The notes under the pieces: generated by a model
What the model saw: only the letters and a program-made list of their open reading frames with translations
What the model was told of the DNA's origin: nothing
Database searches by the model: none
Made by a program: the position numbers and the translations under genes
Source of the DNA: Candidatus Omnitrophota bacterium
Lineage (GTDB): Bacteria > Omnitrophota > Gorgyraeia > Zapsychrales > Fredricksoniimonadaceae
NCBI GenBank assembly: GCA_903860135.1
Contig: CAIOPG010000009.1
Location: 175,805-239,804, forward strand
Direction: 5' to 3'
Length of the DNA stretch: 64,000 bases
Shown here: positions 25,340 to 46,920 of the stretch, in pieces
How the letters are laid out: each line of letters starts with the position of its first letter
How positions within the stretch are numbered: the stretch's first letter is position 1

Positions 25340-25368
25340 ATTATACAAAAGGAGGCTGTGATTGTCAA
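25340..25368 (-). promoter_or_regulatory. Consensus sigma70-type promoter of recA (TTGACA-N17-TATAAT)
   Basis: Minus strand reads gTTGACAatcacagcctccttttgTATAATcatcc. The -35 box (25363-25368) overlaps the stop of the upstream TMTC-like gene. The -10 box is at 25340-25345. No LexA-box-like palindrome between the -10 and the start. Confidence 0.6.
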
Positions 25369-27080
25369 CGCAACTTCAGCCCCCTCTTGCTCAATTGTAT
25401 GATCTTATCCAATCTTGGTCCATCCCCCAGAATGCTACCAATGATCTTAAGCCCCCGTGTCACGCCACCAGTGCCTTCGGCGTGCTCGAGTGCCAACAAA
25501 AAATTGATCGCCAACTCATCCGTATAATGTGAAGGCAATATCCGTTCAAGATACGTCACCGACACAGGATATTGCTTGATCGCGTAATAATAATCTGCCA
25601 TCCCCAACTGCCCATAATAAGATAATGGCACCTTATTGAATATCCGTTCAAAAGCCGCCTTCCCGTCATCCAAACGACCCAACTGTAAATAACAAACGCC
25701 AAGATAGTAATTTGAAAGCGTTGCGTCACACCCTGGATCTTTCAGGGCAAGCAAAAAATTATCTACTGCCTCTTGATATTTCTTCAATCGAAAAAACTCC
25801 GTTCCTTTAAAGAAATAGCCCATGTGGTGCTCTGGATAAGCCTTGACCCAAGCCTCACCCAGAGAGAAATTGCTCCGCCATACCAAATTACTTGTGATGG
25901 CGGGAAGAAGTAACGAAACGATGGCCGCAGAACATAAAAAATACCGCATCCCCGCCGATAAGCGACCACCCCATACCCGCCCCCAATATACAAGGAGCGT
26001 GGCCATCAAGAACGCTATACCCACAAAAGGGATATACATATAACGCAAAGCAACTGGATTGGGATTAACCCAATAAACCAAAGCCGGCAAAAAGAAAACA
26101 CACACCCATAATGCCGCCCATGAAACCTTTGTACGCCTCATTATTAAAATAATCATTGAAGCCATCAGCGTAACAACCAGAAATGCCAGACCTATCATGT
26201 CAACAGAAAGCCATGGGCGCGGCAATGGCCAATATAGAGGCGGCATAACACCAGCAGAAAGAACAAAACAGATCTCTTTTAAATAAAGTGCCACGATCTG
26301 AACAAAAACCGACATATACTCCTGCCAGCCATACCCGACAGCAAAGTTACGTATAAAACCAGTATTCTGGAAAACAAAGAAATATACATACAAATAAAAG
26401 AATGAAATAAAAAAGAACGGCCAATAGGGCCGTTGTTTTATAACCTTTGCCTCCAGCCCAAGAATCGTTCTGTCAAAGAATACAATGACCAATGGAAAGA
26501 AGAGGGCTGTCTCTTTGGAAAACAGTGCCAGAAAATAAGCTGTATACGCAAGAATGGCCCACAGCGCAGTAATCTTCTTTCGAAAATAAAGCCAGGATTG
26601 AAACGCGATCAAGAGAAAAAAACAAGCCAGCAAGTCTGATCTGTAGCCTATCGCAGCAACAGGTTCCGTATTAGCAGGATGAATAGCAAAAATAATGGCG
26701 GCTGACAAAGCTACGAGCGGTGTCGAAAGAAGCGCAACGATCTGATAAAGCAAAAGGACATTGGCCAAATGCAATACAAGACTTGTCAGATGATACCCGA
26801 AAGGGCGATTATCCCAACCCAAACAATCAAAGAAGAAACTCATCGTCGTCATAGGCCGGTAAGCTACTGACCCCGTTCCCTTGTCAGGAGAATGGCCATA
26901 CAGCACTTCATCGGGAATAACATTATACCCGGAACGGAAAATTCTAACGATATTGGACGAGTTTTTATAAAAAGAATTGTTGCCAAAGAGAGCATGATCA
27001 TCACCGGCAAAACCATTCCATAAAACACATGAAAAACACAATAGAATCAAAACAACAAGGCTGATCTTATGCTTGAACAT
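25365..27080 (-). CDS. Polytopic membrane protein of the TMTC/PMT-like GT-C glycosyltransferase type (DUF1736-like HPxNTEPV motif) with C-terminal TPR repeats
   Basis: 571 aa. About 11 TM helices, the [10 protein letters not shown] motif, and roughly 4 TPRs in the C-terminal 180 aa. Confidence 0.5.
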
Positions 27081-27092
27081 TATAGCGTCACT

Positions 27093-27839
27093 TCAACTCA
27101 AGGAATTGTTTAGGATCGCAAAAGATACAACCGCTATCGCGGCTGTATCCACTTTTAAAACATTCTCACCGAGAGTCACAGGCACCGCACCAGCTAGCAC
27201 GGCTTCGACTGCTTCCTCAGGCGTGAAATCTCCTTCAGGTCCAATAAAAAAAACAAAATCCCCTGCATTTCGGCGCGCCGCCAGCGCCATACCCAAAGAA
27301 ATCCGTTCTCCTTCAAGCCATGGGAAAAAAAGAAATTTTCCGGGAACAGCTGTCATGGCCAGCGTTTGGAAGAAAGAAACCGGTAATGTGATCTCGGGAA
27401 ACCATGGACGCTTGCACTGTTTGGCCGCGTTGAGCGCCACCCTCTGGTAACGGGCAAGTTTATGATCAGCTTTCTCGCCGTGCACGTCGTTCTCGGTCCT
27501 TGCCGTAACCATAGGGATAATACGGTCCACCCCTAGCTCGGTGCACTTTTCAATGATCGTTTCAAATTTGGTTCTTTTGGGGATGGCGCAGGCCAGCGTG
27601 ATGTGCGGCCCATGATGCCTCGGAACAACGACAAGAGATCTGATATCAACCCAGGCCGCTGTGCGTGAAACCTCCCGAAGCACCCCTTGCGCCACGCCCC
27701 CTTGCCCGTTCACGATCTCGACGCTATCGCCTGCCTTCAAGCGCAGGACACGGGTCACATGGGCAAATTCATCAGGGTCATCGAGCAAAATACGCGTATC
27801 ATGGCCGGAAAATGGATGGAAAAATCTTCCCGCAGACAC
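27093..27839 (-). CDS. rsmE: 16S rRNA (uracil1498-N3)-methyltransferase
   Basis: 248 aa. PUA-like N-terminus and SPOUT C-terminus (GPEGDFTPEE). Confidence 0.8.
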   Translation of the reverse strand: MSAGRFFHPFSGHDTRILLDDPDEFAHVTRVLRLKAGDSVEIVNGQGGVAQGVLREVSRTAAWVDIRSLVVVPRHHGPHITLACAIPKRTKFETIIEKCTELGVDRIIPMVTARTENDVHGEKADHKLARYQRVALNAAKQCKRPWFPEITLPVSFFQTLAMTAVPGKFLFFPWLEGERISLGMALAARRNAGDFVFFIGPEGDFTPEEAVEAVLAGAVPVTLGENVLKVDTAAIAVVSFAILNNSLS

Positions 27840-27841
27840 GC

Positions 27842-28474
27842 CTAATAACCCCCGGCATTTTCTCGGAAAGTGATGCTGACTTGAGGATTGTCCGTTGTGC
27901 CAGCTGTAAGTGCCCCGGCACTCACAGCCGCGCCAGCAGACGGTGTTTTTCGTCCAACGACGGTCATCTGAAAATAATATTCTCCGGTAGCCCCATCAGC
28001 CACCAGCACAGGATCAGCAATATTGGCATGTGTAAACATATCTTTGACAACATACCCCTCAAAGGTATCTCCCGTAGTACAAGTACCCACTGCCGTCAAT
28101 TCACAACTATATACCGCTGTCTGATCAAGATCACCCGGCTTACTGAAGCAAGTCCAGTTGTCATCTGTGTAAATCTCGGGTGTGAATGCTCCCGATACCT
28201 GGACATCATGCCGAAAACAAAGTGACGAATTGGTGTTATTCAAGTAAATATTTACGCCTGTATCCGAAGGCGATCCATGAAGGCTCCGCACACTCATCCG
28301 TATCTTGTTCACTAAGTATTGAGCTTGGATGTTAATCAAGGCTTCCGAAGAAACATTACTGCCACTCTTGCGCAGTCCATAATCCACACTAAAAATGGCT
28401 GCCATCATGAAGGTGACAATAATGCTCGCCACAATAAGTTCAGCCATTGTAACGGCAGAAGAAGATACTTTCAT
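27842..28474 (-). CDS. Minor (pseudo)pilin-like protein with non-canonical class III leader
   Basis: Inferred start MKVSSSAVTMAELIVASIIV at 28474, giving a 4-nt overlap with the upstream gene. Glu at +5 and a hydrophobic helix, then a Thr/Gly-rich C-terminus. Confidence 0.5.
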   Translation of the reverse strand: MKVSSSAVTMAELIVASIIVTFMMAAIFSVDYGLRKSGSNVSSEALINIQAQYLVNKIRMSVRSLHGSPSDTGVNIYLNNTNSSLCFRHDVQVSGAFTPEIYTDDNWTCFSKPGDLDQTAVYSCELTAVGTCTTGDTFEGYVVKDMFTHANIADPVLVADGATGEYYFQMTVVGRKTPSAGAAVSAGALTAGTTDNPQVSITFRENAGGY

Positions 28475-28476
28475 AA

Positions 28477-28830
28477 TCACCAATTTACCGTCACAGTAAC
28501 CTGGCGCGTTGTCCCGAAGCCAGCTACAACCGTGTAACTGGCTGATGTCATCGAGGTGCAATTGGGATAGGATGCCACAGTAACAGCATGCGCACCGAGC
28601 GTAAGCACGCCCGTACTCCATGTAGAACCCGCCACCGACTTATTCAAGCTATCCAGTATCTCTTTACCGCATAACCCCGCAACCATCCTCGCTTCCGATC
28701 CACGCCCCGAGACCCGCGTTTGGACAATGGTAGCCAAAACCCCCGCAGATGCCACCACAAAAATAACAGACGCGACAATAACCTCGGTCATAGAAAAACC
28801 TGCCTGATCCGTATAAAATTTCATGGACAA
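28477..28830 (-). CDS. Minor pilin / pseudopilin (prepilin-type N-terminal cleavage/methylation domain)
   Basis: Leader ...DQAG|FSMTEVIVASVIFV with Glu+5. Confidence 0.6.
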   Translation of the reverse strand: MSMKFYTDQAGFSMTEVIVASVIFVVASAGVLATIVQTRVSGRGSEARMVAGLCGKEILDSLNKSVAGSTWSTGVLTLGAHAVTVASYPNCTSMTSASYTVVAGFGTTRQVTVTVNW

Positions 28831-32281: not shown

Positions 32282-33508
32282 TTATCCTCCGGTAGATAAA
32301 GAAAGTATAGGTAGAAACATCGCGATAACAATTAGACCTATTACACCACCCATGATAACAAGCATAACGGGTTCAATAAGAATGCTGAATCGCTTCAAAA
32401 ATTCTTCAACATTAGCTTTATAATATATGGCGACATTATTCAACATCTTGCCAAGCTCACCGGTTTCCTCGCCAACACGGATCATCTGCACCGTCATCGA
32501 AGGGAAAAATCCACTTCTTTCCATTGGATCTGCCAAAAGCTGCCCCTCACGTACGGCTTCACGCACATTTCTTATAACTTCCGCACAAACCACATTATCC
32601 ACCAGTCTCTCCGATATCTCCAAAGAATAAAGAATGGGGACACCGCTTTCCATAAGGGTGGACATTTGAGATGTAAACTTCTCAATTACAATTAATTTTA
32701 TCATACCACCGAAAATAGGAACTTTAAAAAGAAAAGTCTCAAATTGCTTTCTTCCAAGAGGTGTTTTAATGTAATTCATGAAAAGAAAAATGCTTCCGGC
32801 CCCTCCAGCAATAAGTATAAAAAATCTCTCTTTCAATAATTTGAAAATTGACATCATTATGACCGTGATAGTCGGGAGCTTGATATCCATATCAGAAAAA
32901 ATACGTTCAAATGTAGGCCCGACAAAAAGAGCGAAAAACAAAACAGCTCCGATACAAATAAAACAAAGAACCATCGGATAAACAAGGGCTCCTATAATAG
33001 TAGACTTGAACTTGGCTGTATCCTCCATATATTGTGTCAACTTGTTGAGAACTTTCGGTAATGTACCAGATGCTTCACCAACCTCAATAAGACTGACCCA
33101 AAAAGCAGTAAACACCTTGGGATATTTTGAAATAGCGCTACTGAAAGTACGACCCTGTTCAACATCTGTGACTACCGCCTCAATGATGACGGTTAACCCA
33201 CGACTTTCCAGCTGAGAGCTGATGATCTTGAGCGATCGCATTAACAAAACACCTGCTCCCATCATCGCAGAAAGTTGACGCGCAAAAGAAACAACATCAT
33301 TTAATGAAATATTATTGTGCGAAAACACCCGCTTCTTTGCAACTGACGTCACAGGCTGTTGATTCTCAACAAACTGTTTTACAGCGGTTACAAAAAGCCC
33401 TTTTTGCTGTGCAAACTTAACAGCCTGCTGATCATTAATGGACTCTACAACCTCATTAAATACATGCCCTGAATTATCTTTAGCAGTAACAAGAAATTTG
33501 GCCATCAA
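32282..33508 (-). CDS. pilC: Type IV pilus / T2SS platform protein (PilC/GspF family, two T2SSF domains)
   Basis: 408 aa. Duplicated GspF-like halves, each followed by TM helices. Confidence 0.85.
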   Translation of the reverse strand: MMAKFLVTAKDNSGHVFNEVVESINDQQAVKFAQQKGLFVTAVKQFVENQQPVTSVAKKRVFSHNNISLNDVVSFARQLSAMMGAGVLLMRSLKIISSQLESRGLTVIIEAVVTDVEQGRTFSSAISKYPKVFTAFWVSLIEVGEASGTLPKVLNKLTQYMEDTAKFKSTIIGALVYPMVLCFICIGAVLFFALFVGPTFERIFSDMDIKLPTITVIMMSIFKLLKERFFILIAGGAGSIFLFMNYIKTPLGRKQFETFLFKVPIFGGMIKLIVIEKFTSQMSTLMESGVPILYSLEISERLVDNVVCAEVIRNVREAVREGQLLADPMERSGFFPSMTVQMIRVGEETGELGKMLNNVAIYYKANVEEFLKRFSILIEPVMLVIMGGVIGLIVIAMFLPILSLSTGG

Positions 33509-33523
33509 TTTCCCCAGATCAAT

Positions 33524-35233
33524 TTATATAACAATAGATAAAATTTCCTCAAGGCTCGTGACACCTTCTTCAACCTTCTTCATCCCAACTTCAAAAAGTG
33601 TCGCCATTCCAGCTTTAGATGCTGCGTCCTTCAATTCGTCATAGGAAACATTGTTACCGATCATACGCCGTATAACATCATTAATGGCAAGAACCTCTGA
33701 TACGACCATGCGTCCCCTGTATCCGGTGTGCCCGCATTTATCGCACCCTTTAGCGCGATAAATCAAATCGGTAGACAACTTGATAGACCCCAGATCTTCC
33801 GGCCTCGGTTCATAGGGCTCTTTGCAATCGGCGCATAACTTACGCGCTAAGCGCTGGCTCACAATCATCGTTAATGACGGTGTTAATAAATATGAGGGGA
33901 CACCTATATCCATCAAGCGGCTTATCGCTGACGGTGCGTCATTGGTATGCAGTGTTGAAAGGACAAAGTGACCTGTTAATGCCGCACGCACACATATCTC
34001 TGCTGTCTCAAGATCACGTATTTCACCAACCATAATGATATCCGGATCCTGTCGAAGAAACGATCGTAACGCCTGTGCAAATCCAAAGCCAATATCAGGA
34101 CGCACATGAACCTGGTTAATTCCATCAATGCGGAACTCAACAGGATCTTCTGCTGTCATAATATTCTTGGTGCGATCAAAAACTTCAGAAAGAGAAGAAT
34201 AAAGGGTCGTCGACTTACCACTACCCGTAGGTCCTGTTATAAGAAAAAGACCATACGGAACTTTAAGTGCTTTACGGATGAGTTCTAACTGGGACGCATT
34301 AAATCCAAGCGTAGCCAAATCAAGTTTTACTGCATTCTTATCCAGGATACGCATAACCACTTTCTCTCCCCAAACGGTAGGAACGGTGGACACACGCAGA
34401 TCAACAACACGGTTTTGATCAAACTTTACAGAAATACGCCCATCCTGCGGCAATCGCCTCTCGGCAATGTCAAGCCTAGAAATGATCTTAATGCGCGATA
34501 CGATCGAAGCATGAAGATGTTTTGCCGGCGGAGGGATTTGATAAAGATCACCGTCGATACGATAACGAAGTTCGATCTTGTCCTTAAAAGGTTCGATATG
34601 AATATCACTTGCCCGGTCATCAATAGCCTGCCTGATAATAAGATCCACAAGCTTGATGATCGGCGCTTCTTCGGCTGTTGCGATCAACCTGTCAAGACTT
34701 AACTCCGACTCAGATTTATCATCACCGGATGTTGAGAAATTACTCGAGTCATTCTGCGCTCTTTCAACCGCCTTTCCCCAAGCACCACCCTCATCGGCCA
34801 GATAAAACCGCTCCAATGATTTTAGAATATCGGTACGTGTCGCAATGACAAAGTTTATTTCACAACCAGTCATCTTTTTCAAATTATCGATCATAATAAG
34901 ATCAAATGGATTAAAGATCGCGCATGTCAGTGAATTACCATTCCGATTAAGTAACAATACAAGATTATCTACAGCATACTGATACGAAATAAGCTTTTCA
35001 AGGCCCTGCCCTTTTTGAGGATTCAATAGGCCTGAAGCTTCGGAGGCATATGGAATAAGAAGCTGTGTCCCAAGAGCCACAGCCAAGTCGCTTTCATTAA
35101 TAAATCCCATTTTGACCAAAATTTCTCCGACATGACTCTTGTCGGTCTTTTGGGCATCTATAGCAGACTGGAACTGGGCTTCGGTAATTAAGCCCTTTTT
35201 AATAAGTATTTCACCAAGCTTTAACCGTGCCAT
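33524..35233 (-). CDS. pilB: Type IV pilus assembly / T2SS ATPase (PilB/MshE/GspE family) with N-terminal MshEN c-di-GMP-binding domain
   Basis: 569 aa. N-terminal tandem 24-aa MshEN motifs (KLGEILIKKGLITEAQFQSAIDAQ, a 5-aa spacer, HVGEILVKMGFINESDLAVALGTQ). Walker A GPTGSGKST. C-terminal tetracysteine CADC...CDKC. Confidence 0.9.
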   Translation of the reverse strand: MARLKLGEILIKKGLITEAQFQSAIDAQKTDKSHVGEILVKMGFINESDLAVALGTQLLIPYASEASGLLNPQKGQGLEKLISYQYAVDNLVLLLNRNGNSLTCAIFNPFDLIMIDNLKKMTGCEINFVIATRTDILKSLERFYLADEGGAWGKAVERAQNDSSNFSTSGDDKSESELSLDRLIATAEEAPIIKLVDLIIRQAIDDRASDIHIEPFKDKIELRYRIDGDLYQIPPPAKHLHASIVSRIKIISRLDIAERRLPQDGRISVKFDQNRVVDLRVSTVPTVWGEKVVMRILDKNAVKLDLATLGFNASQLELIRKALKVPYGLFLITGPTGSGKSTTLYSSLSEVFDRTKNIMTAEDPVEFRIDGINQVHVRPDIGFGFAQALRSFLRQDPDIIMVGEIRDLETAEICVRAALTGHFVLSTLHTNDAPSAISRLMDIGVPSYLLTPSLTMIVSQRLARKLCADCKEPYEPRPEDLGSIKLSTDLIYRAKGCDKCGHTGYRGRMVVSEVLAINDVIRRMIGNNVSYDELKDAASKAGMATLFEVGMKKVEEGVTSLEEILSIVI

Positions 35234-35242
35234 AATTTAATC

Positions 35243-36745
35243 CTATTTCTTTTGTACACTCATAGAGTCCATGGCAGAACGAATAATGCTCTGTCTTATC
35301 ACACCGCTACTTTCGCGAATTCCAAGATCAGCAGGAACAGTGTCAACAACGAAATCACTGCCAGGATCCATGACACGGGGGGTAATAAAAATAAGGAGCT
35401 CCCTGTCTTTGGTAGTCGTAGTATCGTGACGGAACACACGCCCGAGAAAAGGAATGTCTCCTAAGACCGGAAGTTTTGTCTGAACTTTTTGTTTCTCAGA
35501 ACGTAACAATCCTCCGAGAACAACAGTTTCACCCGAATGTATCCTCATTTTAACCTTAGCACTACGGATCTCTGTGTCCTTAAAAGTCACCCCGCTATAA
35601 GTTCCACCCAAACGCGCAACAACCACGCGTGGTGAAACAGCCAGTAAAATATCACCTGTCATCAAATTTAACTGAGGCGTGACCGTCAACGTAATCCCCG
35701 TCTCAACTCGTTCAGGTTCAACAGTGGATCCTTGCGTTATTGTCGCCGCTGCCGTCACTTTAACACCAATAGCTTCCGACGCAGTAATCTTAATCTGTGC
35801 CGTTTCATTATTCATGGTCCAAATTCTTGGGCGCGCTAAATTCCTAGCATCTGTTGACGTCTTTAAAAACTGTAACATAGCCGAAAAAGCATTTCCGCCC
35901 ATCGCGCCCTGTGAATACGTAACCTCTGTGCCCCCCTTACTAAGTGCATTCTTTTGGTCAAGAGGGAAATAAAAACTCCTCCCTCCCAGTCCTTTGAAAT
36001 CATATAAGGTGTTGCCAAACTTAACACCTATCTCATCAGCTACTTCCTTAGAAACATCTATCATCTGGACTTCAATCAATATCTGGGCAACCGGCACATC
36101 CAGTTTAGCCAATGTTCGTTCGATCAAAGGAAAATTTGTATCTTCATCAGAAATGATCAGGCTGTTGGTCCGTGAATCTTCAGCGATCTTGGCCGAAGCT
36201 GTTAATACTGTTTTCAAAATATCCACGAGAGCAACGCTCGTCGTTACTGTATTGCTCCCAGCACTCGACGATCCATTACCCCCCCCTTCTTCTGCGGTAA
36301 TTCCGAATGTTGATTGCAACTTTGAAGATGCAACAGTAGCATATTTTAAAGGATAAACACGCGTTATGATATTCTTTTCAGCCTTGATATTATCGATCAT
36401 CAAAATATTGTCATTATTATCATATGAATAAGAAAGTCCATTTGCCGTCAAAATTTTTTTCAAAGCATCCTCAACAGGAACAGCATCAAGAAAAAGTGTT
36501 ATAGGGTCGGTTTTAACAGCGTCTGAAACAATAAAATTGGCACCTATCTGACGAGAGAAGGCCTTCAAAACATCCCTGATATCTGCATTCTTGAAATCAA
36601 GGGAAACAAGTTGAGAATATTGTGGAAGTATAAAACTGTTCTGACTACCAGCTGAAGTAGTGGCAGAAAAAACTTGAGTAAATAAAGAAATTTGAATAAT
36701 ATTGGTAAGTAAAAATATAAATAAATATTTATTTTTTAAACCCAT
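35243..36745 (-). CDS. pilQ: Secretin (PilQ/GspD family)
   Basis: 500 aa. Signal peptide and N-domains. C-terminal secretin core VVLGGLLRSEKQKVQTKLPVLGDIPFLGRVF. Confidence 0.85.
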   Translation of the reverse strand: MGLKNKYLFIFLLTNIIQISLFTQVFSATTSAGSQNSFILPQYSQLVSLDFKNADIRDVLKAFSRQIGANFIVSDAVKTDPITLFLDAVPVEDALKKILTANGLSYSYDNNDNILMIDNIKAEKNIITRVYPLKYATVASSKLQSTFGITAEEGGGNGSSSAGSNTVTTSVALVDILKTVLTASAKIAEDSRTNSLIISDEDTNFPLIERTLAKLDVPVAQILIEVQMIDVSKEVADEIGVKFGNTLYDFKGLGGRSFYFPLDQKNALSKGGTEVTYSQGAMGGNAFSAMLQFLKTSTDARNLARPRIWTMNNETAQIKITASEAIGVKVTAAATITQGSTVEPERVETGITLTVTPQLNLMTGDILLAVSPRVVVARLGGTYSGVTFKDTEIRSAKVKMRIHSGETVVLGGLLRSEKQKVQTKLPVLGDIPFLGRVFRHDTTTTKDRELLIFITPRVMDPGSDFVVDTVPADLGIRESSGVIRQSIIRSAMDSMSVQKK

Positions 36746-36749
36746 ACTA

Positions 36750-37220
36750 TCAATCTTTCAATAATAACTTGTAAAGAAATTCGTTGTAATCTATTTCCAC
36801 ACGGCCTTTGCGGATAGCCAAAATCCTTACCCCCTCTGATCTATCCCCCAAACCCAATATATTTCCATTTAAAATAACCATTGGATTCCTTGTTTTATAA
36901 AATATTCCTGTCACTTTCAGCACAGGCAACGAGGCTATTGATAATTTCCTTACAGGTTGCGCTGAGGGTATCGCAACAAAGTGCTTTATTTCAGGAATAA
37001 CAGCAACTATCGGTCTATCTACTACTGGCTTAACTAAATTATCAGCTTCCTTGCGAAAATCTTTACTAACAAGATCTGGTCTGGCTTTAAACGGATGGAA
37101 AGGCTCCCCAAGAGACTCTATCATCATTTCAAACGGAAGCTTATTAGTCTCATTGGCGTAAGAAAGAGTTGAATTAAAATGAAATAATTGAAAACTATAG
37201 ATAAAAAGAATATTATACAT
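36750..37220 (-). CDS. PilP/GspC-like inner-membrane lipoprotein-like component (weak)
   Basis: Short TM/signal region then a beta-rich C-terminus (LKVTGIFYKTRNPMVILNG..LGDRSEGVRILAI). Sits between PilO-like and the secretin. The start is inferred after the pilO stop. Confidence 0.35.
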   Translation of the reverse strand: MYNILFIYSFQLFHFNSTLSYANETNKLPFEMMIESLGEPFHPFKARPDLVSKDFRKEADNLVKPVVDRPIVAVIPEIKHFVAIPSAQPVRKLSIASLPVLKVTGIFYKTRNPMVILNGNILGLGDRSEGVRILAIRKGRVEIDYNEFLYKLLLKD

Positions 37221-37236
37221 TAAAAAAAGATGATGC

Positions 37237-37866
37237 CTACTTCTTTTTAAAATTTTTATGTTCATTATCTTCCACCAGTTGAAGCAACGAAATGGTAACA
37301 TCCAGCGTCATCGCATCCGTCTGGACTCCTGAATTAACCGGATTGTACTTAATCAACAGGCTATCCAATTTGATCATGTACCCGGAAGATTCCATATCAT
37401 GAACAAATAATAGCATATCCTTGACATTAAGGGAAGAAGCACTAAAACTCATACAAATAGAACGAAAAAAACCATCATTGCTAGTCTGCAATGGATTAAA
37501 AGCATCAATTGTAATTCGTCGCCGCGTGGCACGCCCTGTAACATAAGATATAAAATCAGCCTTGACCAATCCCAAAGGCATCTTGCACATATAATCAGTC
37601 AGATATTTGTTGCTTTGCTCAAGATCCTGGATAGGCTGTCTTTTTGATTGCAAAATCTTTTTTCTCGACGCAAGAGACTGATATTGATTAAAATTTTTAG
37701 TTGTAAGAAAAACTATTACACAAAATCCCAATAAAACAATCAAAGAATTAGTCGCTAAAACTAAATTCTGATTTACATAATGGTTACAATCCTTAATAAA
37801 TTTTGAAGGATTATTTAGATATATTTCGAAATTCTTTAAATCATCAAGATTCATTTCGCCTCGCAC
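37237..37866 (-). CDS. PilO-like inner-membrane pilus alignment protein (weak)
   Basis: 209 aa with a single TM near residue 45 and a coiled-coil-like region. Position is between pilMN and the pilP-like gene. Confidence 0.4.
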   Translation of the reverse strand: MRGEMNLDDLKNFEIYLNNPSKFIKDCNHYVNQNLVLATNSLIVLLGFCVIVFLTTKNFNQYQSLASRKKILQSKRQPIQDLEQSNKYLTDYMCKMPLGLVKADFISYVTGRATRRRITIDAFNPLQTSNDGFFRSICMSFSASSLNVKDMLLFVHDMESSGYMIKLDSLLIKYNPVNSGVQTDAMTLDVTISLLQLVEDNEHKNFKKK

Positions 37867-39511: not shown

Positions 39512-39841
39512 TCAGTAACTAACATCCATCGTGAATGCCCTTGTTGCCCCTGGTCCTCCGCCGGCTACTTGGGTATAATGAACCGAATATGTTGTTCCGT
39601 CAACATATTCAGAGAAATCCGTAAGTGTTGTCGAACCACCGGCGTAAATCTCGCGTGCCCACCATAAAGCTTTTTTGGCAATAAGTTCCGCCTGAAGATG
39701 CTTTCTTTCACGTTCGGAAATAAGTGCCTGTGAATAATTTCGCGATAACACACCTAAAACCAAGATTGACATAAGCATAACAGCCGCAATAACTGTCAGT
39801 AAAATTACCCCCCGCTCACTACCGTATTCTCTTCTAATCAT
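39512..39841 (-). CDS. PilX/GspK-like minor pilin
   Basis: Inferred start MIRREYGSERG|VILLTVIAAVMLM. The ORF-track start is a 37-aa upstream extension overlapping the next gene. Confidence 0.45.
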   Translation of the reverse strand: MIRREYGSERGVILLTVIAAVMLMSILVLGVLSRNYSQALISERERKHLQAELIAKKALWWAREIYAGGSTTLTDFSEYVDGTTYSVHYTQVAGGGPGATRAFTMDVSY

Positions 39842-40073
39842 GAATTCCCTCCTCAAGATAACTCTGACAAAGTGGACAACGCACAACCTCAGTCTTTCCG
39901 TTACTGATAATGATATGGCTGCAATAGGGGCATTGCCTAACAATACCCGCACTTGATGCCTCCCTGTTTACGCCATCATCCACAACGGCATATTTAAACC
40001 ACATAAACCCAAAAAAAATAATCATGACAGAAAGACAAAGACTTACGCCCAAGGCAATATCTATCGTGATCAT
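39834..40073 (-). CDS. Small membrane protein with C-terminal CPxC...CPLC zinc-ribbon
   Basis: 79 aa. N-terminal TM (LGVSLCLSVMIIFFGFMWF), then CPYCSHII-(12 aa)-CPLCQSY. Overlaps both neighbours by 4-8 nt. Confidence 0.5.
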   Translation of the reverse strand: MITIDIALGVSLCLSVMIIFFGFMWFKYAVVDDGVNREASSAGIVRQCPYCSHIIISNGKTEVVRCPLCQSYLEEGIHD

Positions 40074-40498
40074 GGCAACCTCAAACGAAGATCTAATGGT
40101 GCTACAGGAACATCCTCAACAACTGCCACAGAAGGTTCATCGCGATCCTCAGGAACAACCCTTACACCGGAAAAATGAAATATATCCTTATCCTCCGGTG
40201 GCATACTTCTATAAAAAGATTCAGGTTTCTCTGCCTGCAAGGAGCGCAACCACCCTCCTGATAAGTATAATGGTACGGTACTATCATTAATCTTTTCTTC
40301 AACTTGCAGGACTGAAACTTCATGACGCGAAGGAATAACTTCCTGCGGGCTTAAAATATTGCCCAAGAAGACAACATCGAGTTTGTACGTGTTGTTAACA
40401 GCTCCTTTAAATGAAAAGATCACAAAAGTTAAAGCGATGGCGTGCATGATGCCCGCCGTTAATACCCCTATCATCGGAGAATGCCACTTCACTAGCAT
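40070..40498 (-). CDS. TonB/TolA-like N-terminal anchor protein lacking a recognisable C-terminal domain
   Basis: 142 aa. TM (IGVLTAGIMHAIALTFVIF) with a conserved His. Acidic/Pro-rich C-terminus (PEDRDEPSVAVVEDVPVAPLDL). Start coincides with the exbD stop. Confidence 0.35.
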   Translation of the reverse strand: MLVKWHSPMIGVLTAGIMHAIALTFVIFSFKGAVNNTYKLDVVFLGNILSPQEVIPSRHEVSVLQVEEKINDSTVPLYLSGGWLRSLQAEKPESFYRSMPPEDKDIFHFSGVRVVPEDRDEPSVAVVEDVPVAPLDLRLRLP

Positions 40499-40896
40499 TA
40501 CTTCTCACGATCCGTAGCAATATTAATATGCTCGATCCCCATGCTGCGGGCAAGATTCAGGATGTCCACAACACGACCAACCGATGCCCGGTGATCCGCC
40601 TTGATCAAGATGGCTCTGGCATTGCCGCCAGGAAATGCTAAAAACTCTTTAAGTTCACCCAGCGTGATCAAATGATTATTCACATACACAACATTCTCGC
40701 CCGTCACAATGATCGTCAAACTTGACGGAGAGGCTATGTCGCTTGTCACTCCTTTGGGCAAGGCGATCTTTAAGAACGATGATTTTGAAATAAATAAAAT
40801 AAACGCTATAAAACCCAATAGAATAAATAATACATTCAAAAAAGGAAAGAAATTAAATTTTGGCACACATAATTTCAAATGCCTACGGAAATCCAT
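40498..40896 (-). CDS. exbD: ExbD/TolR-family biopolymer transport protein
   Basis: 132 aa. N-terminal TM and periplasmic ExbD fold (LTIIVTGENVVYVNNHLITLGEL, ILIKADHRASVGRVVDIL). Confidence 0.75.
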   Translation of the reverse strand: MDFRRHLKLCVPKFNFFPFLNVLFILLGFIAFILFISKSSFLKIALPKGVTSDIASPSSLTIIVTGENVVYVNNHLITLGELKEFLAFPGGNARAILIKADHRASVGRVVDILNLARSMGIEHINIATDREK

Positions 40897-40899
40897 GCC

Positions 40900-41568
40900 C
40901 TAAGCCCCTCCGGCTAAAGGAACATTAATAATCTGCGTCATTTCACGCACAAGCGTCGAAGCAACCTGCTCCATCTGCAGAACAGTACCCTCGATCACCT
41001 TAAGAAAATACCGGTGCGCGATCATGGCAAAGATCCCGACAAGGGAAGCCGCCGCTGTTGTAATAAGCGCTTGCCCAAGACCAGCCGTAACATCCATCAA
41101 ACTGGCAGGATTTACAGCTACCGCACGAAGCTGTATTGTATGCAATAACCCACACAAACCAACCACCGTCCCCAGAAGGCCGATCAAAGGCACTAATTGA
41201 GCCATAAATACTAAAAGATCCAACCCTTTTTCCATCGCGCGTACCTCATACCTGGCCGCATCTTCCATCGCCACTTGTATCTCTGGTGCCGATTGACCAA
41301 AACTCAACAATCCTGCTTTTAAAATTCGTGCCATCGAAGAATCTGCGGCATCACACGCTGAAAGGGCACCCATGGTATTATTGTTTTGAATAAAACCGAT
41401 CACTTGAATAGAAAGGACAGCAATACCTTCGCGCACTTCTCCTAGAAACAAGAATCTTTCAATGACCAAAGCCGTAACACTGACGGAACATATCAAAACA
41501 GGAACCATGACAGGACCACCTGTCAATAATAATCGCCATGCGCCAATCCCGGTTACAGCATCGATCAT
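40900..41568 (-). CDS. exbB: MotA/TolQ/ExbB-family proton channel
   Basis: 222 aa with 3 TM. Conserved C-terminal LVGIFAMIAHRYF. Confidence 0.8.
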   Translation of the reverse strand: MIDAVTGIGAWRLLLTGGPVMVPVLICSVSVTALVIERFLFLGEVREGIAVLSIQVIGFIQNNNTMGALSACDAADSSMARILKAGLLSFGQSAPEIQVAMEDAARYEVRAMEKGLDLLVFMAQLVPLIGLLGTVVGLCGLLHTIQLRAVAVNPASLMDVTAGLGQALITTAAASLVGIFAMIAHRYFLKVIEGTVLQMEQVASTLVREMTQIINVPLAGGA

Positions 41569-41586: not shown

Positions 41587-44070
41587 TTATTTCTTCCCGC
41601 TGCGTTCTTGGATCAACTCAATCCGTTCATTGGCAAACTTACTCTCGTCAACCTTCAAGTCAACAACCTTCCTGTACGCAGTAATCGCCTTTTCTAATTC
41701 ATTATTGTTTTCAAAAATTCTAGCGATACGCAAATATGCTTTTATAACCCATGGGATTTCTTTCGAATAAATATACGGTATCTTGAAATAAGCCTCTAGT
41801 GCCTTGTCAGATTCATTCAACACCTCGTAAACATCTCCCACAGAAAATTGAATCCCGGCACTGGTTACCTGGCTTTCACCTTTATCCGCTTCGATAGCCT
41901 CCGCGTATACAAACAACTCTTCGTTAAATTTCTTCTCCCGACGGTATATCTGCGCTATCTTCATTAAAGCATCACGTTTATACTGCGGACTTGTCGCTAT
42001 AATACCATGGTATGTTTCAACCGCCTTGTCAGTATCCAGTTCCTTAACAAATATACCAGCAATAGCAATCTTTGCCTTGGGGTAAAGTAATGGATCAATT
42101 TGGGGATCAACCTGCCTAAAATACGCGAGAGCTTTTTCAAAGTTCTCCAAAGACAAATACGCACGACCCAATTCAAAACAAAGAAGACCTTGCTTGACCG
42201 TCTCGGGCAAATCAAACAAGCCCTTCGTATAGAGTTCTACGGCCACCTGATAGAGACCTTCTGTCATATTGTACTGCCCCAGCCACAGAACACACTCGAT
42301 CTCCGCTTCGGTGTGAGGGTAACGATGCACGATATCTTTAAAACGTGCAAGTGCTTCCTTCGTGTCACCCATAGCATCATATGTCTTGGCAAGCCCTACA
42401 TACGCATTCTGGAGTATCTGCTGTTCATCAGGATAAAGCCTAAGCACATCATTAAAGATAACTATCGCCCTGTCAAACTGCTTCAAATTAAAATGCGTCA
42501 TCGCCAACACATAACGGGCTTCCGCCACAAACTGAACCGGAACAACAGGGTCAGAAATAAAAGAGGTCAGTATTTCAACAGCCGTCGCCCATTCCTTTCT
42601 ACGGAAATACGCCAAACCAAGATAATAACGGGATTCAGAAATATACTTACTGCCGGGATAATTAGCTTTTAATGCCTGAAGTGCCAAAACAGCAGCATCA
42701 ATCTTGCCGGATTTAAGAAGCGCAATCCCTAAATAATATTGGACATGATCTTCATAAGGCGTGTCCGGCATTTCATGAAGGATCTTGTCATAGACATCGA
42801 TCGCCTTGTCCATAACGCCAGCCTCCTGATAGGCATCCGCAATCTGGCTATACGCACTCACTTTTATTATCTTGTTATCCGACTTGTCAGCTACCAGCTG
42901 AAACATAGCGACAGCCTTGTCAATATCACCGCTCTTGGAATAAGTCCAAGCTAAACCGAACCTAGCTTTCTCGATCATTTTATCCCGTCCTGCCGCACCG
43001 CTAGAAATAGCAATGATCATCTCATAATCTTTGATAGCGGCCACATAATCATTAACAAGATACCAGGCATTGGCACGCCCCAAATAAGTATCGGCTATTT
43101 TAAGACTCGCCGGAAACCGCGCGATAACTTCCGAATAAATTGAGGCCGCTTCAACATATTTCTCCTGGGCTATAAAAAGACTCGCCTTGGCCAAAAGAAC
43201 ATCTTCTTCGGATACCTTTGCCGCTTTAACCGCAAATTGCGCTTCATCGAACGTCTTTAACGCCTCCACATATTTCTTAAGTTTGATCTGACACCAGCCC
43301 GTCCCGATCAGCGATGCGGCCATCGAAGATGGCGCCGTTGTCAATGATCTGGCTTTCTGATAAGCATCCGAGGCCTTGTCATATTGTTCCAGATTATACA
43401 AAGCCTCGGCCACATTGAATTGGGCTTCATAAAGACGGGTCGAACCGGGATGCCCTGAGATATAATTATTGAAAGCCACAATAGCCGCTTCATACTGAAC
43501 AGCATTGTAGTCACACTCTCCCAGCTTGAACGCGGCATCATCGGACAAGTTGTTAGCAGGAAACTTATCGATCAAGGCCTGGAATATCTTTTTGGCCGAC
43601 ACATAATCTTCCTTCTGAAAATAAGACCAGGCGAGCGAATAATATGCCTGGGGCGCATACAGGGATGCCGGAAAAGCATCAATAACTTGACGGTATTTCT
43701 CTTGGGCTTTGGGAATATCGCCACCCTTGAAATATGTTTCTCCCAACCAGAAAAGAGAGGCATCCTTGTATTCAGGCAACGCTACCAGATCCTTAAAAAC
43801 ATTAAAGGCCTGCACATACTGTTGCTTAAAGAAATAACTTTGCCCTTCGAGCAATCTCGCTTCAACAACTTTTGTGGTTTGCGGGAATTCAGTTAGAAGT
43901 TGATTGACGTAACGCAGAGAAACATCATAAAAACCATCTTCAAATGCGCGCTGGGCTACAATGAAAAGATCTTTCTCATTAGAATCAACAGCAAAAGATG
44001 GTGTCGCAACGATGAGCAACGAAATGCCCATGATGTACAGGATACATTGTAGATTTTTTCTTATTTTCAT
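41587..44070 (-). CDS. Large secreted/periplasmic TPR-repeat protein (about 18 TPRs)
   Basis: 827 aa. Signal peptide MKIRKNLQCILYIMGISLLIVATPSFA. TPR consensus (W..LG..Y...G.Y..A) repeats throughout. Confidence 0.8.
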   Translation of the reverse strand: MKIRKNLQCILYIMGISLLIVATPSFAVDSNEKDLFIVAQRAFEDGFYDVSLRYVNQLLTEFPQTTKVVEARLLEGQSYFFKQQYVQAFNVFKDLVALPEYKDASLFWLGETYFKGGDIPKAQEKYRQVIDAFPASLYAPQAYYSLAWSYFQKEDYVSAKKIFQALIDKFPANNLSDDAAFKLGECDYNAVQYEAAIVAFNNYISGHPGSTRLYEAQFNVAEALYNLEQYDKASDAYQKARSLTTAPSSMAASLIGTGWCQIKLKKYVEALKTFDEAQFAVKAAKVSEEDVLLAKASLFIAQEKYVEAASIYSEVIARFPASLKIADTYLGRANAWYLVNDYVAAIKDYEMIIAISSGAAGRDKMIEKARFGLAWTYSKSGDIDKAVAMFQLVADKSDNKIIKVSAYSQIADAYQEAGVMDKAIDVYDKILHEMPDTPYEDHVQYYLGIALLKSGKIDAAVLALQALKANYPGSKYISESRYYLGLAYFRRKEWATAVEILTSFISDPVVPVQFVAEARYVLAMTHFNLKQFDRAIVIFNDVLRLYPDEQQILQNAYVGLAKTYDAMGDTKEALARFKDIVHRYPHTEAEIECVLWLGQYNMTEGLYQVAVELYTKGLFDLPETVKQGLLCFELGRAYLSLENFEKALAYFRQVDPQIDPLLYPKAKIAIAGIFVKELDTDKAVETYHGIIATSPQYKRDALMKIAQIYRREKKFNEELFVYAEAIEADKGESQVTSAGIQFSVGDVYEVLNESDKALEAYFKIPYIYSKEIPWVIKAYLRIARIFENNNELEKAITAYRKVVDLKVDESKFANERIELIQERSGKK

Positions 44071-44127: not shown

Positions 44128-46920
44128 TTAAAGCTGGCGTTGCAGGAATGGACGCAAATACTGACCGGTGTATGATTCCGGGTGTGCCATCAGCCCTTCG
44201 GGAGTACCCGAGAATACCACACGGCCGCCGCGATCCCCACCATCTGGTCCAAGGTCTATGACATGGTCCGCTGATTTGATCACCTCGAGGTTATGCTCAA
44301 TGACAAGGACCGTGTTCCCCTTATCTACCAGCTGCTGAAGGACGCCGAGCAGTTTCTCGACATCAGCAAAATGCAGGCCTGTTGTTGGTTCATCCAGGAT
44401 ATACAGCGTCCTTCCTGTTGAAGGTTTGCAAAGCTCTGCCGCAAGTTTCACGCGCTGAGCTTCCCCGCCCGACAGCGTCGTGGCCGCCTGGCCGATCTTC
44501 ACATAACCAAGGCCAACCTCATTGATCACGCGCAATACCCGGGCAATACGGGGAATGTTGCCGAAGACCTCCAGTGCTTCGCTGATCGACATATCGAGCG
44601 TCTGACTGATATTCCTGCCTTTATATTCAACCTGCAAGGTCTGCTCGTTGAATCGCTGCCCATGACAAACAGCGCATTCCACATGAACATCCGGCAAGAA
44701 ATGCATTTCAATTTCTTTAACCCCGTCCCCCTGGCACGCTTCACAACGTCCGCCTTTAACATTAAAACTGAAACGCCCTGGACCATATCCCCTCAACCTG
44801 GATTCAGGAAGTCCGGAAAAAATAGAACGGATATCCGTAAAGACACCTGTATATGTTGCCGGATTTGACCGGGGTGTACGTCCTATCGGCGACTGATCAA
44901 CGACGATGACCTTGTCAATGGCGTCAAGTCCCTCAAGTTTCCTGTAAGCACCGGATTTCTCGCGGGATCCATAAAGATGACGCGCAAGCGCTTTATAAAG
45001 AACATCATAAACAAGCGTTGATTTCCCTGAACCGGAAACACCCGTTACGCATACAAAAACCCCCAGCGGGATATCAACATCAATATTCTTTAGATTATGT
45101 TCACTGACACCCTTTAAACGGATACAAGCTCCGCGCACAGCGGGCCGCCGTTGTGCCGGGATAGGAATACGGATAGATCCCTTAAGGTATTGCCCCGTCA
45201 ACGAATCTGAAATGGAAAGAATACCGTCAACAGGCCCCGCGTACATGATCTCCCCGCCGAACCGCCCCGCGCCCGGACCGAGATCCACCAGCCAGTCCGC
45301 ACTGCGGATCGTATCCTCATCATGTTCCACGACCACAAGGGTATTCCCCAGATCTCTGAGATCCCGTAAACTTGACAACAACCTTTCATTATCTTTTTGA
45401 TGGAGCCCGATAGACGGCTCATCCATCACATACACCACGCCGACGAGTCCGGAACCCACCTGCGTTGCCAGGCGGATGCGTTCAGCTTCCCCGCCGGATA
45501 GCGTTGAACTTTTACGGTCAAGCGTCAAATAATCCAGCCCCACATTGATACAAAAATCAAGCCGGCGAATGATCTCTTTAAGAACAGGTGCCGCAATGGT
45601 GCGTTCACCCCCCTCCAGTTGAAGCCCCAGAAAAAACTCCCGCGACTCCTGAATGGACATGCGCACGATCTCGGCAATGTTCTTGCCCTCAACAAGCACC
45701 ATCAGGGCTTCTTTCCTCAAACGCCGCCCTTCACACGCAGGGCATGGCGCTTCGGACATGAATTTTGAGATCTCCTCCTTGAGCCAGTCGCTCGGCGTCT
45801 CCCTGAACAAACGCTGGAGATAACCCGCGACCCCTTCAAACTTCTTGCCCCAGATAATGTCTTCGCCGCCAAAAAGAACCCTTTGTTTAAAATCCCGGGG
45901 AAGTTTATTGAACGGCATGGCCGGATCCATATCATAAAGCTTGGCTATTTCACGCAACACCGCCCGATAATACATCATGTATCCCCGCTGGCCCTTGCGC
46001 CAGGGAACAATGGCCGATACCCATGCTTTCTCCGGTGACGTGACCAATGTTTCAACATCGATCTCCATCCTTGTCCCGATACCATTGCAATCAGGGCATG
46101 CCCCATACGGAGAGTTGAAAGAAAATGTCCGCGGCTCAAGCTCCGGAAGATCGATCCCCTCATCGGGAACAGCAAAACTCTCGCTCATGACAAGATCTTC
46201 TGTCCCGTCTGTAAAACCGACAACAATAAAACCCTTGCCGACCCTGAGTGCCGTCTCGACCGAATCTGTCAAACGGGTTTTCACGTCTGGTCTGACTGAT
46301 AGGCGATCTACCACTATTTCGACAGAATGGATCTTATAACGATCAAATTTGATCTTGTCTTGAACATCATAAATATGCCCATCGACCCGTAGCCGCGCAA
46401 AACCCGCCTTGGCCACATCCCTACCGATGTGTGGATAGGTGCCCTTCTTCCCGCGGATATACGGCGCAAGGATATTGATCTTACTGCCCGCAGACAGTCG
46501 TAATATCCGTTCGACCATTTCCTGGGCAGACTGCTTCTCGAGCTTTTGCCCCATATAATAAGGAACACCGATCCTCGCGAACAACAGCCTCAAATAATCA
46601 TAAATTTCCGTCTGCGTGGCCACCGTTGACCTGGGATTACGGCTGATCGTTTTCTGTTCAATGGAGATCGTCGGGCTCAAGCCTTCGATCGACTCGACAT
46701 CCGGTTTCTGCACCTGATCGAGAAATTGGCGGGCATACGCTGAAAGGCTTTCCACATAACGCCGCTGCCCTTCAGCATAGATCGTATCAAAAGCCAGCGA
46801 AGACTTCCCAGAACCACTCAACCCCGTCACAACAATCAACTTGTTGCGGGGAAGCTCAAGGGAAATGTTCTTGAGATTATGTTCCCTGGCATTCTTGATA
46901 ACGATATTATTAAGTTGCAT
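44128..46920 (-). CDS. uvrA: Excinuclease ABC subunit A
   Basis: 930 aa. Two ABC ATPase modules ([18 protein letters not shown]), Zn-finger Cys clusters and ABC signature LSGGEAQR. Confidence 0.95.

Follow-up and report, generated by a model that had tools for sequence, protein, structure and literature searches.

A head-less TonB relative and a zinc-ribbon membrane protein encoded between ExbD and a type IV pilus cluster in Omnitrophota

Introduction

The transducers of Ton and Tol motors are anchored in the inner membrane, where cryo-electron microscopy (cryo-EM) places the transmembrane (TM) helix of TonB or TolA on the first TM helix (TM1) of ExbB or TolQ and a periplasmic strand, the D-box or R-box, on ExbD or TolR (PMC12215075, PMC12905483). 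Residues S16 and H20 of TonB contact S34 and W38 of ExbB, and the D-box binds the ExbD dimer (PMC12215075, PMC12905483). The D-box (in TolA, the R-box) is found 10–15 residues past the helix and forms a strand on the ExbD/TolR dimer (PMC12215075, PMC12905483, PMC12204202). The present work concerns two small genes, here called X and Y, which lie between an ExbD gene and a type IV pilus cluster in 64,000 nucleotides (nt) of DNA from a Candidatus Omnitrophota bacterium (GenBank assembly GCA_903860135.1, contig CAIOPG010000009.1, positions 175,805 to 239,804 of the forward strand); this whole stretch is referred to below as the window. An earlier sequence-only reading had likened the helix of X to a TonB/TolA anchor that contacts ExbD/TolR, a contact which the structures cited above assign to ExbB/TolQ TM1 instead.

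Several described systems resemble this locus. GltJ of the Myxococcus gliding motor is a TonB-like protein that carries an N-terminal cytoplasmic zinc ribbon within one polypeptide and works with the TolQR-like AglRQS motor. In Pseudomonas aeruginosa the tonB3 gene is located away from pocAB, and its product carries a TonB_C domain. Omnitrophota themselves are placed near or within the Planctomycetes-Verrucomicrobia-Chlamydiae (PVC) group. PocA, PocB and TonB3 of P. aeruginosa, paralogues of ExbB, ExbD and TonB, are required for the assembly and polar placement of type IVa pili (PMC5285504). The N0 domain of PilQ resembles the signalling domain of TonB-dependent receptors, and a contact between TonB3 and N0 has been proposed (PMC5285504). 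Members of the PVC group encode transducers headed by a vWA (von Willebrand factor A) domain in TPR-tolQ-tolR operons, the transducer being bitopic and possessing both a motor box and a helix of SHLS type (Williams-Jones et al., 2025, PMC12204202). A literature search found no paper describing the cluster analysed here.

Here it is reported that X is a TonB-type motor adaptor without a head and that Y is a previously undescribed zinc-ribbon partner.

Conservation of X and Y

Both genes lie on the minus strand between ExbD and the pilus genes at the positions first proposed (Table 1). A third small gene, Z, which the earlier reading did not mention, also separates ExbD from the PilM-PilN fusion gene (PilMN). 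A word-indexed homology search with the proteins of the window gave self-matches only, and relatives of X and Y were detectable only through full HMMER searches and through synteny. For X, HMMER was run in full against 1.84 billion representatives and gave nine true relatives of 108–147 amino acids (aa); one further match (P0010, 862 aa, nine stretches) is a low-complexity repeat protein and was dismissed as spurious. Scanning the GTDB species representatives for the pattern of a four-sequence alignment yielded three loci, all in metagenome-assembled genomes of Candidatus Omnitrophota/Omnitrophica, a result that by itself would most likely place the window in this phylum. The public records that name relatives of X or Y call them "hypothetical protein".

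A wider sample was taken from metagenomes, where a scan with an alignment of the ExbD clade found 170 relatives, 80 loci of which were retrieved; the loci of the whole set are numbered with the prefix L below. Open reading frames (ORFs) were called in all loci, and iterated hidden Markov models (HMMs) were built for each gene. Sequences of Y were chosen by their Cys pattern, because fusions of Y with Z draw Z into the Y model. Synteny was counted over 80 distinct ExbD sequences, and the residue pairs of the stator over 95 loci, redundant copies included.

X and Y are real, conserved genes. X stands directly after ExbD in 63 of the 65 loci that extend at least 600 nt downstream. Thirty unique loci extend at least 3 kb downstream, and of these 29 contain X, 29 contain Y, 27 contain Z and 27 contain PilMN. 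Around each of the closest ExbD relatives (39–63% identity) the neighbouring genes are identical in kind and size, with orthologues of X and Y of unchanged size and order being present in relatives at 36–63% ExbD identity. The frames of X and Y most commonly overlap by 4 or 8 nt, and intact, overlapping ORFs are present in at least five diverged species-level lineages. Ratios of nonsynonymous to synonymous substitution rates (dN/dS) range pairwise from 0.12 to 0.38 for X and from 0.10 to 0.35 for Y; the unsaturated pair L024/L026 gives 0.19 and 0.10, respectively. The expectation that both small ORFs would recur in related genomes is thus borne out.

X, a TonB/TolA relative without a head domain

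The N-terminal TM helix of X, which includes His19, is the only confident part of an AlphaFold2 (AF2) model made from a ten-sequence alignment (predicted local distance difference test, pLDDT, 72–92). The His is conserved in nine of ten aligned family sequences (10 of 11 in alignment A3; one sequence is N-terminally truncated and one has Tyr). Behind the helix follows a tail of 111 residues with 18 Asp or Glu, 11 Lys or Arg and 11 Pro. The helix and the acidic, Pro-containing tail had both been recognised from the sequence alone, as had the lack of a TonB_C or TolA_C domain, which withstood more sensitive searches: X has no match in Pfam or NCBIfam at E≤1, its family profile finds nothing relevant among all PDB sequences, and the AF2 model contains no globular domain, with a pLDDT below 50 throughout the tail. 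Without a C-terminal globular domain, X lacks the known means of binding a TonB box, TolB or Pal, and because this head is a defining feature, X is not classed as a bona fide TonB.

Its descent is revealed by longer relatives. The family consists of short forms of 135–177 aa (37 distinct sequences, that of the window included) and long forms of 205–256 aa (25 distinct). An HMM built from the short forms only matches all 25 unique long forms (E 8e-16 to 4e-6), and in hhalign the short forms align to the long ones with 97.9% probability (E 3e-13) across the helix and the "V.FLG.IL" strand; the window clade by itself reaches 90% (E 1.4e-6). In the long form of L093 the C-terminal domain is a Pfam TonB_C (1.7e-7, 32 bits, gathering cut-off 24.6), the long form of L085 matches the same model at 0.006, and the remaining long forms align to these two through invariant SSG...D...R and W..VKI columns. 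The best PDB match of the long-form profile is Escherichia coli TolA (9k49_H, E 0.016), the S-x3-H helix falling on SAVLH of TolA (S18/H22) and the next strand on IDAVMV in the R-box region. Because X aligns to long forms that carry TonB_C, it can be described as a TonB-derived anchor without the head domain. This derivation is held with high confidence, and the earlier description of X as a TonB-like stub is sustained.

The best-conserved segment of the family is the strand YKLDVVFLG, situated 7–15 residues past the helix. At the position of the SHLS Ser, the window clade has Ala (Ala15) and the wider X family Ser; in the long forms S22 and H26 are invariant. The last residues of the short forms follow the pattern P(Y)xPL[RK][FL], for example "IQPYLPLRFYIK" in L024 and "APLDLRLRLP" in the window, while the long forms carry HPYLPLHFLLYF at the start of their domain ("HPYLPLHFLLYFRDRQ" in L064). 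The terminal motif of the short forms therefore opens the domain of the long forms, and the short forms are truncated just past its first strand.

An origin outside the TonB family has also been considered, in which X and Y would be pilus-assembly proteins of a GspC/PilP-like or GspL/M-like kind that follow ExbD by chance. Their place at the 5' end of the pilus cluster and the absence of both from any Pfam family would suit such an origin. It is largely refuted, and hardly credible, in view of the homology of X to TonB_C-bearing orthologues, the alignment of its N-terminal region to the TolA helix and R-box, and the finding that X and Y stay with ExbB and ExbD, not with the pilus genes, where the two sets are separated (see below).

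Y, a membrane protein with a zinc-ribbon-like module

The 79-aa product of Y has a single hydrophobic helix (residues 5–27, Kyte-Doolittle maximum 2.49), modelled by AF2 as helix from residue 2 to 42 followed by small hairpins. Across 25 diverged sequences with 18–50% identity to the Y of the window, the alignment shows an N-terminal MIxI(D/E)F, one TM helix, an invariant Trp (W25) and a basic stretch behind it; further on C48, C51, C66, P67 and C69 are invariant and are followed by S-Y. The Cys residues make up two CxxC knuckles with a short hairpin between them, and all four are fully conserved in these 25 sequences. The one TM segment and the four Cys agree with what had been noticed in the sequence, the spacing between the knuckles being 14 residues rather than the 12 given then. 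Against the zinc-ribbon and rubredoxin-like models of Pfam, Y gives generic, sub-threshold matches (best 19.6 bits, threshold 25), and its profile finds generic zinc ribbons only among PDB sequences.

The orientation of Y follows from two diverged contigs in which Y and Z form one ORF (L074, 3080-3649, 189 aa; L092, 10829-11392, 187 aa), with the order Y helix, ribbon, basic segment and pseudopilin helix. Pilin-type helices are oriented with the N-terminus inside and the C-terminus outside. The ribbon between the two helices is therefore cytoplasmic, and Y is N-out/C-in, as the positive-inside rule would also have it. Within the N-terminal tail of four residues, the conserved acidic position is most simply taken as a topogenic signal. 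In both fusion ORFs Ala, not Gly, precedes the pilin helix, which makes their processing by prepilin peptidase doubtful.

Features of the locus

The coordinates of the genes and of the elements within X and Y are collected in Table 1. The genes form one uninterrupted run on the minus strand, in the order UvrA-TPR-ExbB-ExbD-X-Y-Z-PilMN-PilO-PilP-secretin-ATPase-PilC-prepilins. ExbD and X overlap by 1 nt (TAATG), X and Y by 4 nt (ATGA) and Y and Z by 8 nt (ATGATTAG). A consensus scan for promoters and terminators found terminators not to be enriched and no break between Y, Z and PilMN; the arrangement looks like a single operon.

Table 1. Positions in the window of the genes from UvrA to the prepilins and of sequence elements in X and Y
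Feature	Position	Strand	Basis or remark
UvrA	44128..46920	minus	directly upstream of the TPR-ExbB-ExbD cluster
TPR protein, 827 aa, periplasmic, ~10 YbgF/CpoB-type TPR units	41587..44070	minus	Pfam TPR_6 5.9e-65
ExbB/TolQ-type pentamer subunit	40900..41568	minus	Pfam MotA_ExbB 3.4e-22, 79 bits
ExbD/TolR-type subunit	40498..40896	minus	Pfam ExbD 1.8e-15, 57.6 bits (gathering score 25.4)
X, 142 aa, anchor very probably derived from TonB/TolA, without C-terminal domain	40070..40498	minus	
X TM helix, residues 6-31, A15-x3-H19	40406..40483	minus	AF2 pLDDT 72-92
X D-box/R-box-like strand YKLDVVFLG, residues 38-46	40361..40387	minus	family alignment
X C-terminal motif APLDLRLRLP, residues 133-142	40073..40102	minus	homologous to first-strand region of long-form TonB_C-like domain
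Y, 79 aa, single-pass, cytoplasmic C4 zinc-ribbon/rubredoxin-like module	39834..40073	minus	
Y TM helix, residues 5-27	39993..40061	minus	hydropathy and AF2; topology from Y-Z fusions
Y predicted metal-binding ribbon CPYC-x14-CPLC, residues 48-69	39867..39932	minus	Cys conservation
Z, 109 aa, GspK/ComGG-like minor pseudopilin	39512..39841	minus	NCBIfam T2SS_GspK 3.6e-7 (N-terminal 57 positions only)
PilM-PilN fusion, 534 aa	37851..39455	minus	Pfam PilM_2 2.3e-12, PilN 0.0038; NCBIfam pilM 1.2e-18
PilO-like	37237..37866	minus	position and weak matches only
PilP/T2SSB-like	36750..37301	minus	position and weak matches only
Secretin with N0/STN and N1 domains	35243..36745	minus	Pfam Secretin 1.2e-37, Secretin_N 2.8e-12, STN 4.2e-8
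GspE/PilB-type ATPase	33524..35233	minus	matches T2SSE, MshEN
PilC	32282..33508	minus	T2SSF match
Eight tandem prepilin genes, 131-163 aa	28821..32222	minus	N_methyl motif in 8 of 8

Z matches NCBIfam T2SS_GspK at a level far under the 130-bit cut-off for the whole protein, a match returned by six of nine members, and matches ComGG at 9.5e-5. The globular part of Z found no match among PDB sequences, the Z profile giving only a TM-helix match to FliL. The TPR protein has a Sec-type signal peptide without a lipobox Cys, unlike most non-proteobacterial CpoB proteins, which are reported to be lipoproteins (PMC12204202). It matches NCBIfam tol_pal_ybgF at 1.4e-64 (216 bits, cut-off 90.1, ten stretches), and its gene lies upstream of ExbB in 57 loci, being the first of the module in most.

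The PilM-PilN fusion also matches Amuc_1101_fam, a PilM-like family named after Akkermansia (NCBIfam 2.7e-17, far under cut-off). All substantial genes identified in the window are on the minus strand, including those for Lys, Arg and His biosynthesis, RecA, RecX, AlaRS, UvrA and the pilus cluster. Downstream of the prepilins lie a 259-aa ORF without a Pfam match (27842-28621), then a gene for an RNA methyltransferase (27093-27839), then one for a TPR protein of 571 aa (25365-27080); the 259-aa ORF and this TPR protein may belong to the pilus cluster.

Residues of the stator

In alignments, Asn21 of ExbD (40834-40836) stands where E. coli ExbD and TolR have the TM Asp regarded as essential (D25 and D23, respectively), and Gln166 of ExbB (41071-41073), aligned with E. 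coli ExbB/TolQ, falls at the Glu176 position. The best NCBIfam match of this ExbB is tolQ. The Thr148/Thr181 pore pair and the Ser34 equivalent of ExbB are invariant across loci. For the positions ExbD Asp25 and ExbB Glu176 the pair Asp/Glu occurs 57 times and Asn with Gln or Ser 17 times, the latter in the window clade and L047; Asp/Gln and Asn/Glu occur three times each and Asp/Val once, the Asp25 position is Thr in two loci and Gly in one, and the remaining loci are incomplete. A compensating acidic or His residue was sought in the second TM helix of ExbB in the Asn/Gln clade and none was found: the His of "FHTIQ" is present in Asp/Glu loci too, so it does not compensate. Lacking the proton-binding Asp, the stator of this clade may serve as a static platform, or its mechanism may be non-canonical. 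Canonical Asp/Glu motors are likewise found with a head-less X, hence the loss of the head and the loss of the Asp are separable.

Such replacements could be taken to mean that the module is a decaying relic in the window clade, a motor without its Asp and Glu beside a TonB without its head, with X and Y functionless. The changes ExbD D25 to N, ExbB E176 to Q or S and SHLS Ser to Ala do all fall in one clade. Strong purifying selection acts in that same clade, however, as the comparison of L006 with L013 gives a dN/dS of 0.035 (ExbD), 0.13 (ExbB), 0.30 (X) and 0.19 (Y), with dS saturated. The ORFs are moreover intact and overlapping in at least five diverged species-level lineages, and head-less X is also found with Asp/Glu motors. 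Decay of this kind is therefore judged very improbable. The selection acting on an Asn-type ExbD clade challenges the view that the Asp is indispensable in every member of the family.

The stator unit and the pilus genes

The order TPR-ExbB-ExbD-X-Y-Z-PilMN-PilO-PilP-secretin-ATPase-PilC is kept in 27 of the 30 long loci, down to 36% ExbD identity. Where the pilus genes are absent, the genes that remain together are informative. L077, L087 and L089 contain UvrA-TPR-ExbB-ExbD-X-Y and continue, with neither Z nor pilus genes, into housekeeping-type genes (by eye, NAD synthetase, an Lrp-family regulator, an aminotransferase and glutamine synthetase). L093 and L085 are more distant, and TonB_C can be recognised in their X; there ExbB-ExbD-X-Y is followed by an 88-aa ORF, and pilus genes are absent. 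No TPR gene lies upstream in L093, and the contig of L085 begins too near ExbD to show upstream genes. Since X and Y stay with ExbB and ExbD in the absence of pilus genes, the core unit is ExbB-ExbD-X-Y, of which Y is probably the fourth subunit. Z belongs with the pilus genes, and the Y/Z junction is the contact point of the two modules.

The 88-aa ORF after Y (L085:1767-2033, L093:4123-4389) is conserved, with the pattern "PIEPPL...GFGWW.A.VL.ESWGR.Q.C.YLWQ.K", and in L085 an ORF that looks by eye to be of CutA type lies past it.

The architecture of the pilus proteins was also compared across loci with a short and a long X. PilO has about 200–218 aa in short-X loci and 173–188 aa in long-X loci; its length was rejected as a correlate of the form of X, L081 showing that it tracks phylogeny. 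The mature N-terminus of the secretin carries, directly before N0/STN, a short conserved peptide: loci with a short X have "SFILPQYS" or "LYPEYS", those with a long X "LPFPNPD" or "LMFPNPE". The short-type secretin motif is also that of L081, whose X is short but which the ExbBD tree groups with loci of long X. A docking peptide is one possible interpretation of a pattern that is confounded by phylogeny.

Proposed role and alternatives

The proposal that best fits these results adds X and Y, as subunits three and four, to ExbB and ExbD in a single module of the inner membrane, ExbB-ExbD-X-Y. The N-in TM helix of X, with its conserved His, would sit on TM1 of ExbB, and the D-box-like strand would be clamped by the periplasmic ExbD dimer. 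Behind it would extend a linker of some 95 residues that is predicted to be disordered, acidic and Pro-containing. The conserved terminal amphipathic strand APLDLRLRLP, a remnant of the first strand of TonB_C, would most likely dock on a periplasmic partner by strand addition. The acidic N-terminal tail of Y probably drives its membrane insertion, the C4 ribbon would face the cytoplasmic side of the complex, and Y may pair with Z, the GspK-like pseudopilin encoded next. The module would most likely serve the apparently co-transcribed machine, resembling a type IV pilus or type II secretion system (T2SS), as PocAB-TonB3 does in P. aeruginosa, and not TonB-dependent receptors. The conserved order in 27 of 30 loci, the frame overlaps from ExbD through X and Y to Z, and the Y-Z fusion in two lineages all point towards such a link, which is plausible. 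A pilus-related role is thus put forward tentatively, its chances falling a little short of even. The earlier suggestion that X and Y link the stator to PilN/PilO is a reasonable hypothesis, with no feature pointing to PilN/PilO in particular.

Several observations count against this proposal. Direct profile matches to E. coli TonB and TolA are weak (E 0.002–0.016; hhalign of the long-form profile, 3.5% for TonB and 14% for TolA), although they fall in the expected regions, and the SHLS Ser is replaced by Ala in the window clade, where the equivalent of ExbB Trp38 is not conserved either. Asn21 of ExbD and Gln166 of ExbB speak against a canonical proton-driven motor in this genome. In at least five lineages (L077, L087, L089, L085 and L093) ExbB-ExbD-X-Y has no pilus genes next to it. 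Conversely, X and Y are naturally deleted in L057 (1105-1909), where ExbB, ExbD and Z are intact, as are the pilus genes; all that is left is a 33-aa piece similar to the N-terminal extension seen in long-form X, beside an unrelated 68-aa ORF. Finally UvrA, which is functionally unrelated, is upstream in nearly all related loci and as tightly syntenic as the pilus genes, so that gene order in this lineage is kept regardless of function.

The last three observations would also suit a self-standing Tol/Ton-like envelope system made up of ExbB-ExbD-X-Y and the CpoB-like TPR protein, serving for example outer-membrane or peptidoglycan maintenance or cell division, with pilus adjacency as frozen gene order. 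The 216-bit match of the TPR protein to tol_pal_ybgF, the tolQ match of ExbB and the TPR-tolQ-tolR-transducer clusters described in the PVC group (PMC12204202) lean the same way. Neither TolB nor Pal/OmpA-like genes were found, however, among the ORFs scanned in the window (the cluster at ~28.8–44.1 kb and both flanks) or in the syntenic loci, whereas the order of tol-pal operons is highly conserved (PMC12204202). Such a system would also have to do without the known binding of TolB, Pal or a TonB box, for which X has no head, and would leave aside the fusion of Y to the pseudopilin Z in two lineages, the translational overlap of Y and Z, and the finding that pilus genes follow directly in 27 of the 30 long loci. 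An independent envelope system of this type is considered rather unlikely, and less likely than the pilus-related role.

The proposal of a pilus-serving module can be carried further, to a version that is speculative and improbable as a whole. A Ton/Tol-type 5:2 stator would be a built-in, co-translated part of the Omnitrophota type IV filament machine; Y would tie the stator to the GspK-like pseudopilin and the inner-membrane assembly platform, X would reach the secretin/alignment complex by a single docking strand, and motor energy, or a static derivative in the Asn/Gln clade, would gate, position or pull the pilus machine. If true, a Ton/Tol stator within a pilus machine would be an undescribed hybrid, containing a natural ExbD that works without its "essential" Asp.

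What defines TonB and TolA is a head domain that takes hold of a partner in the outer membrane, while the X family, which is widespread, keeps in at least 37 distinct sequences only the motor-binding half and one terminal strand. Head-less X beside mostly canonical motors thus represents a natural "minimal TonB", which could show the roles of the helix and D-box alone, and ExbBD-type motors have a candidate new subunit in the always-present zinc-ribbon protein Y. From the operon link and the fusion of Y to a pseudopilin come concrete protein pairs with which to test why type IV pili depend on Ton paralogues, a so far unexplained dependence exemplified by PocAB-TonB3. As the organisms are uncultured, tests are restricted to structural or heterologous work.

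Comparison with known systems

With TonB and TolA of E. coli, X shares its place directly after exbB-exbD, an N-in helix with the His of SHLS, a strand at the D-box position and a disordered, Pro-containing linker, and its orthologues in sister lineages carry TonB_C. It differs in that the X of the window stops after the first strand of the head, has Ala for the SHLS Ser and has a linker of only about 95 residues. Tol-Pal with CpoB (YbgF) similarly combines TolQ/TolR-like motor genes with a neighbouring YbgF-type TPR protein, but no tolB or pal was found among the ORFs scanned in the window, its TPR protein has 827 aa with about ten repeat units and is encoded upstream, and its transducer lacks TolA domain III. 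GltJ presents the same combination of a membrane-attached cytoplasmic zinc ribbon, a TolQR/ExbBD-type motor and a TonB-like transducer; in the window, however, the ribbon resides in the separate 79-aa Y, C-terminal to its helix, and no sequence similarity to GltJ was found.

The closest published architecture is the vWA-transducer operon of the PVC group, which shows that the head domain of a transducer is exchangeable (PMC12204202). In the window family the head is TonB_C or absent, one tolR/exbD gene takes the place of a heterologous pair, and an extra zinc-ribbon protein and the downstream pilus cluster are added. The nearest precedent is PocAB-TonB3, where a set of ExbB/ExbD/TonB type is likewise associated with a type IV pilus machine rather than with nutrient import. 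What sets the system of the window apart is an apparent single operon shared with the pilus genes, an obligatory zinc-ribbon fourth subunit and a TonB-like protein that is head-less in many lineages.

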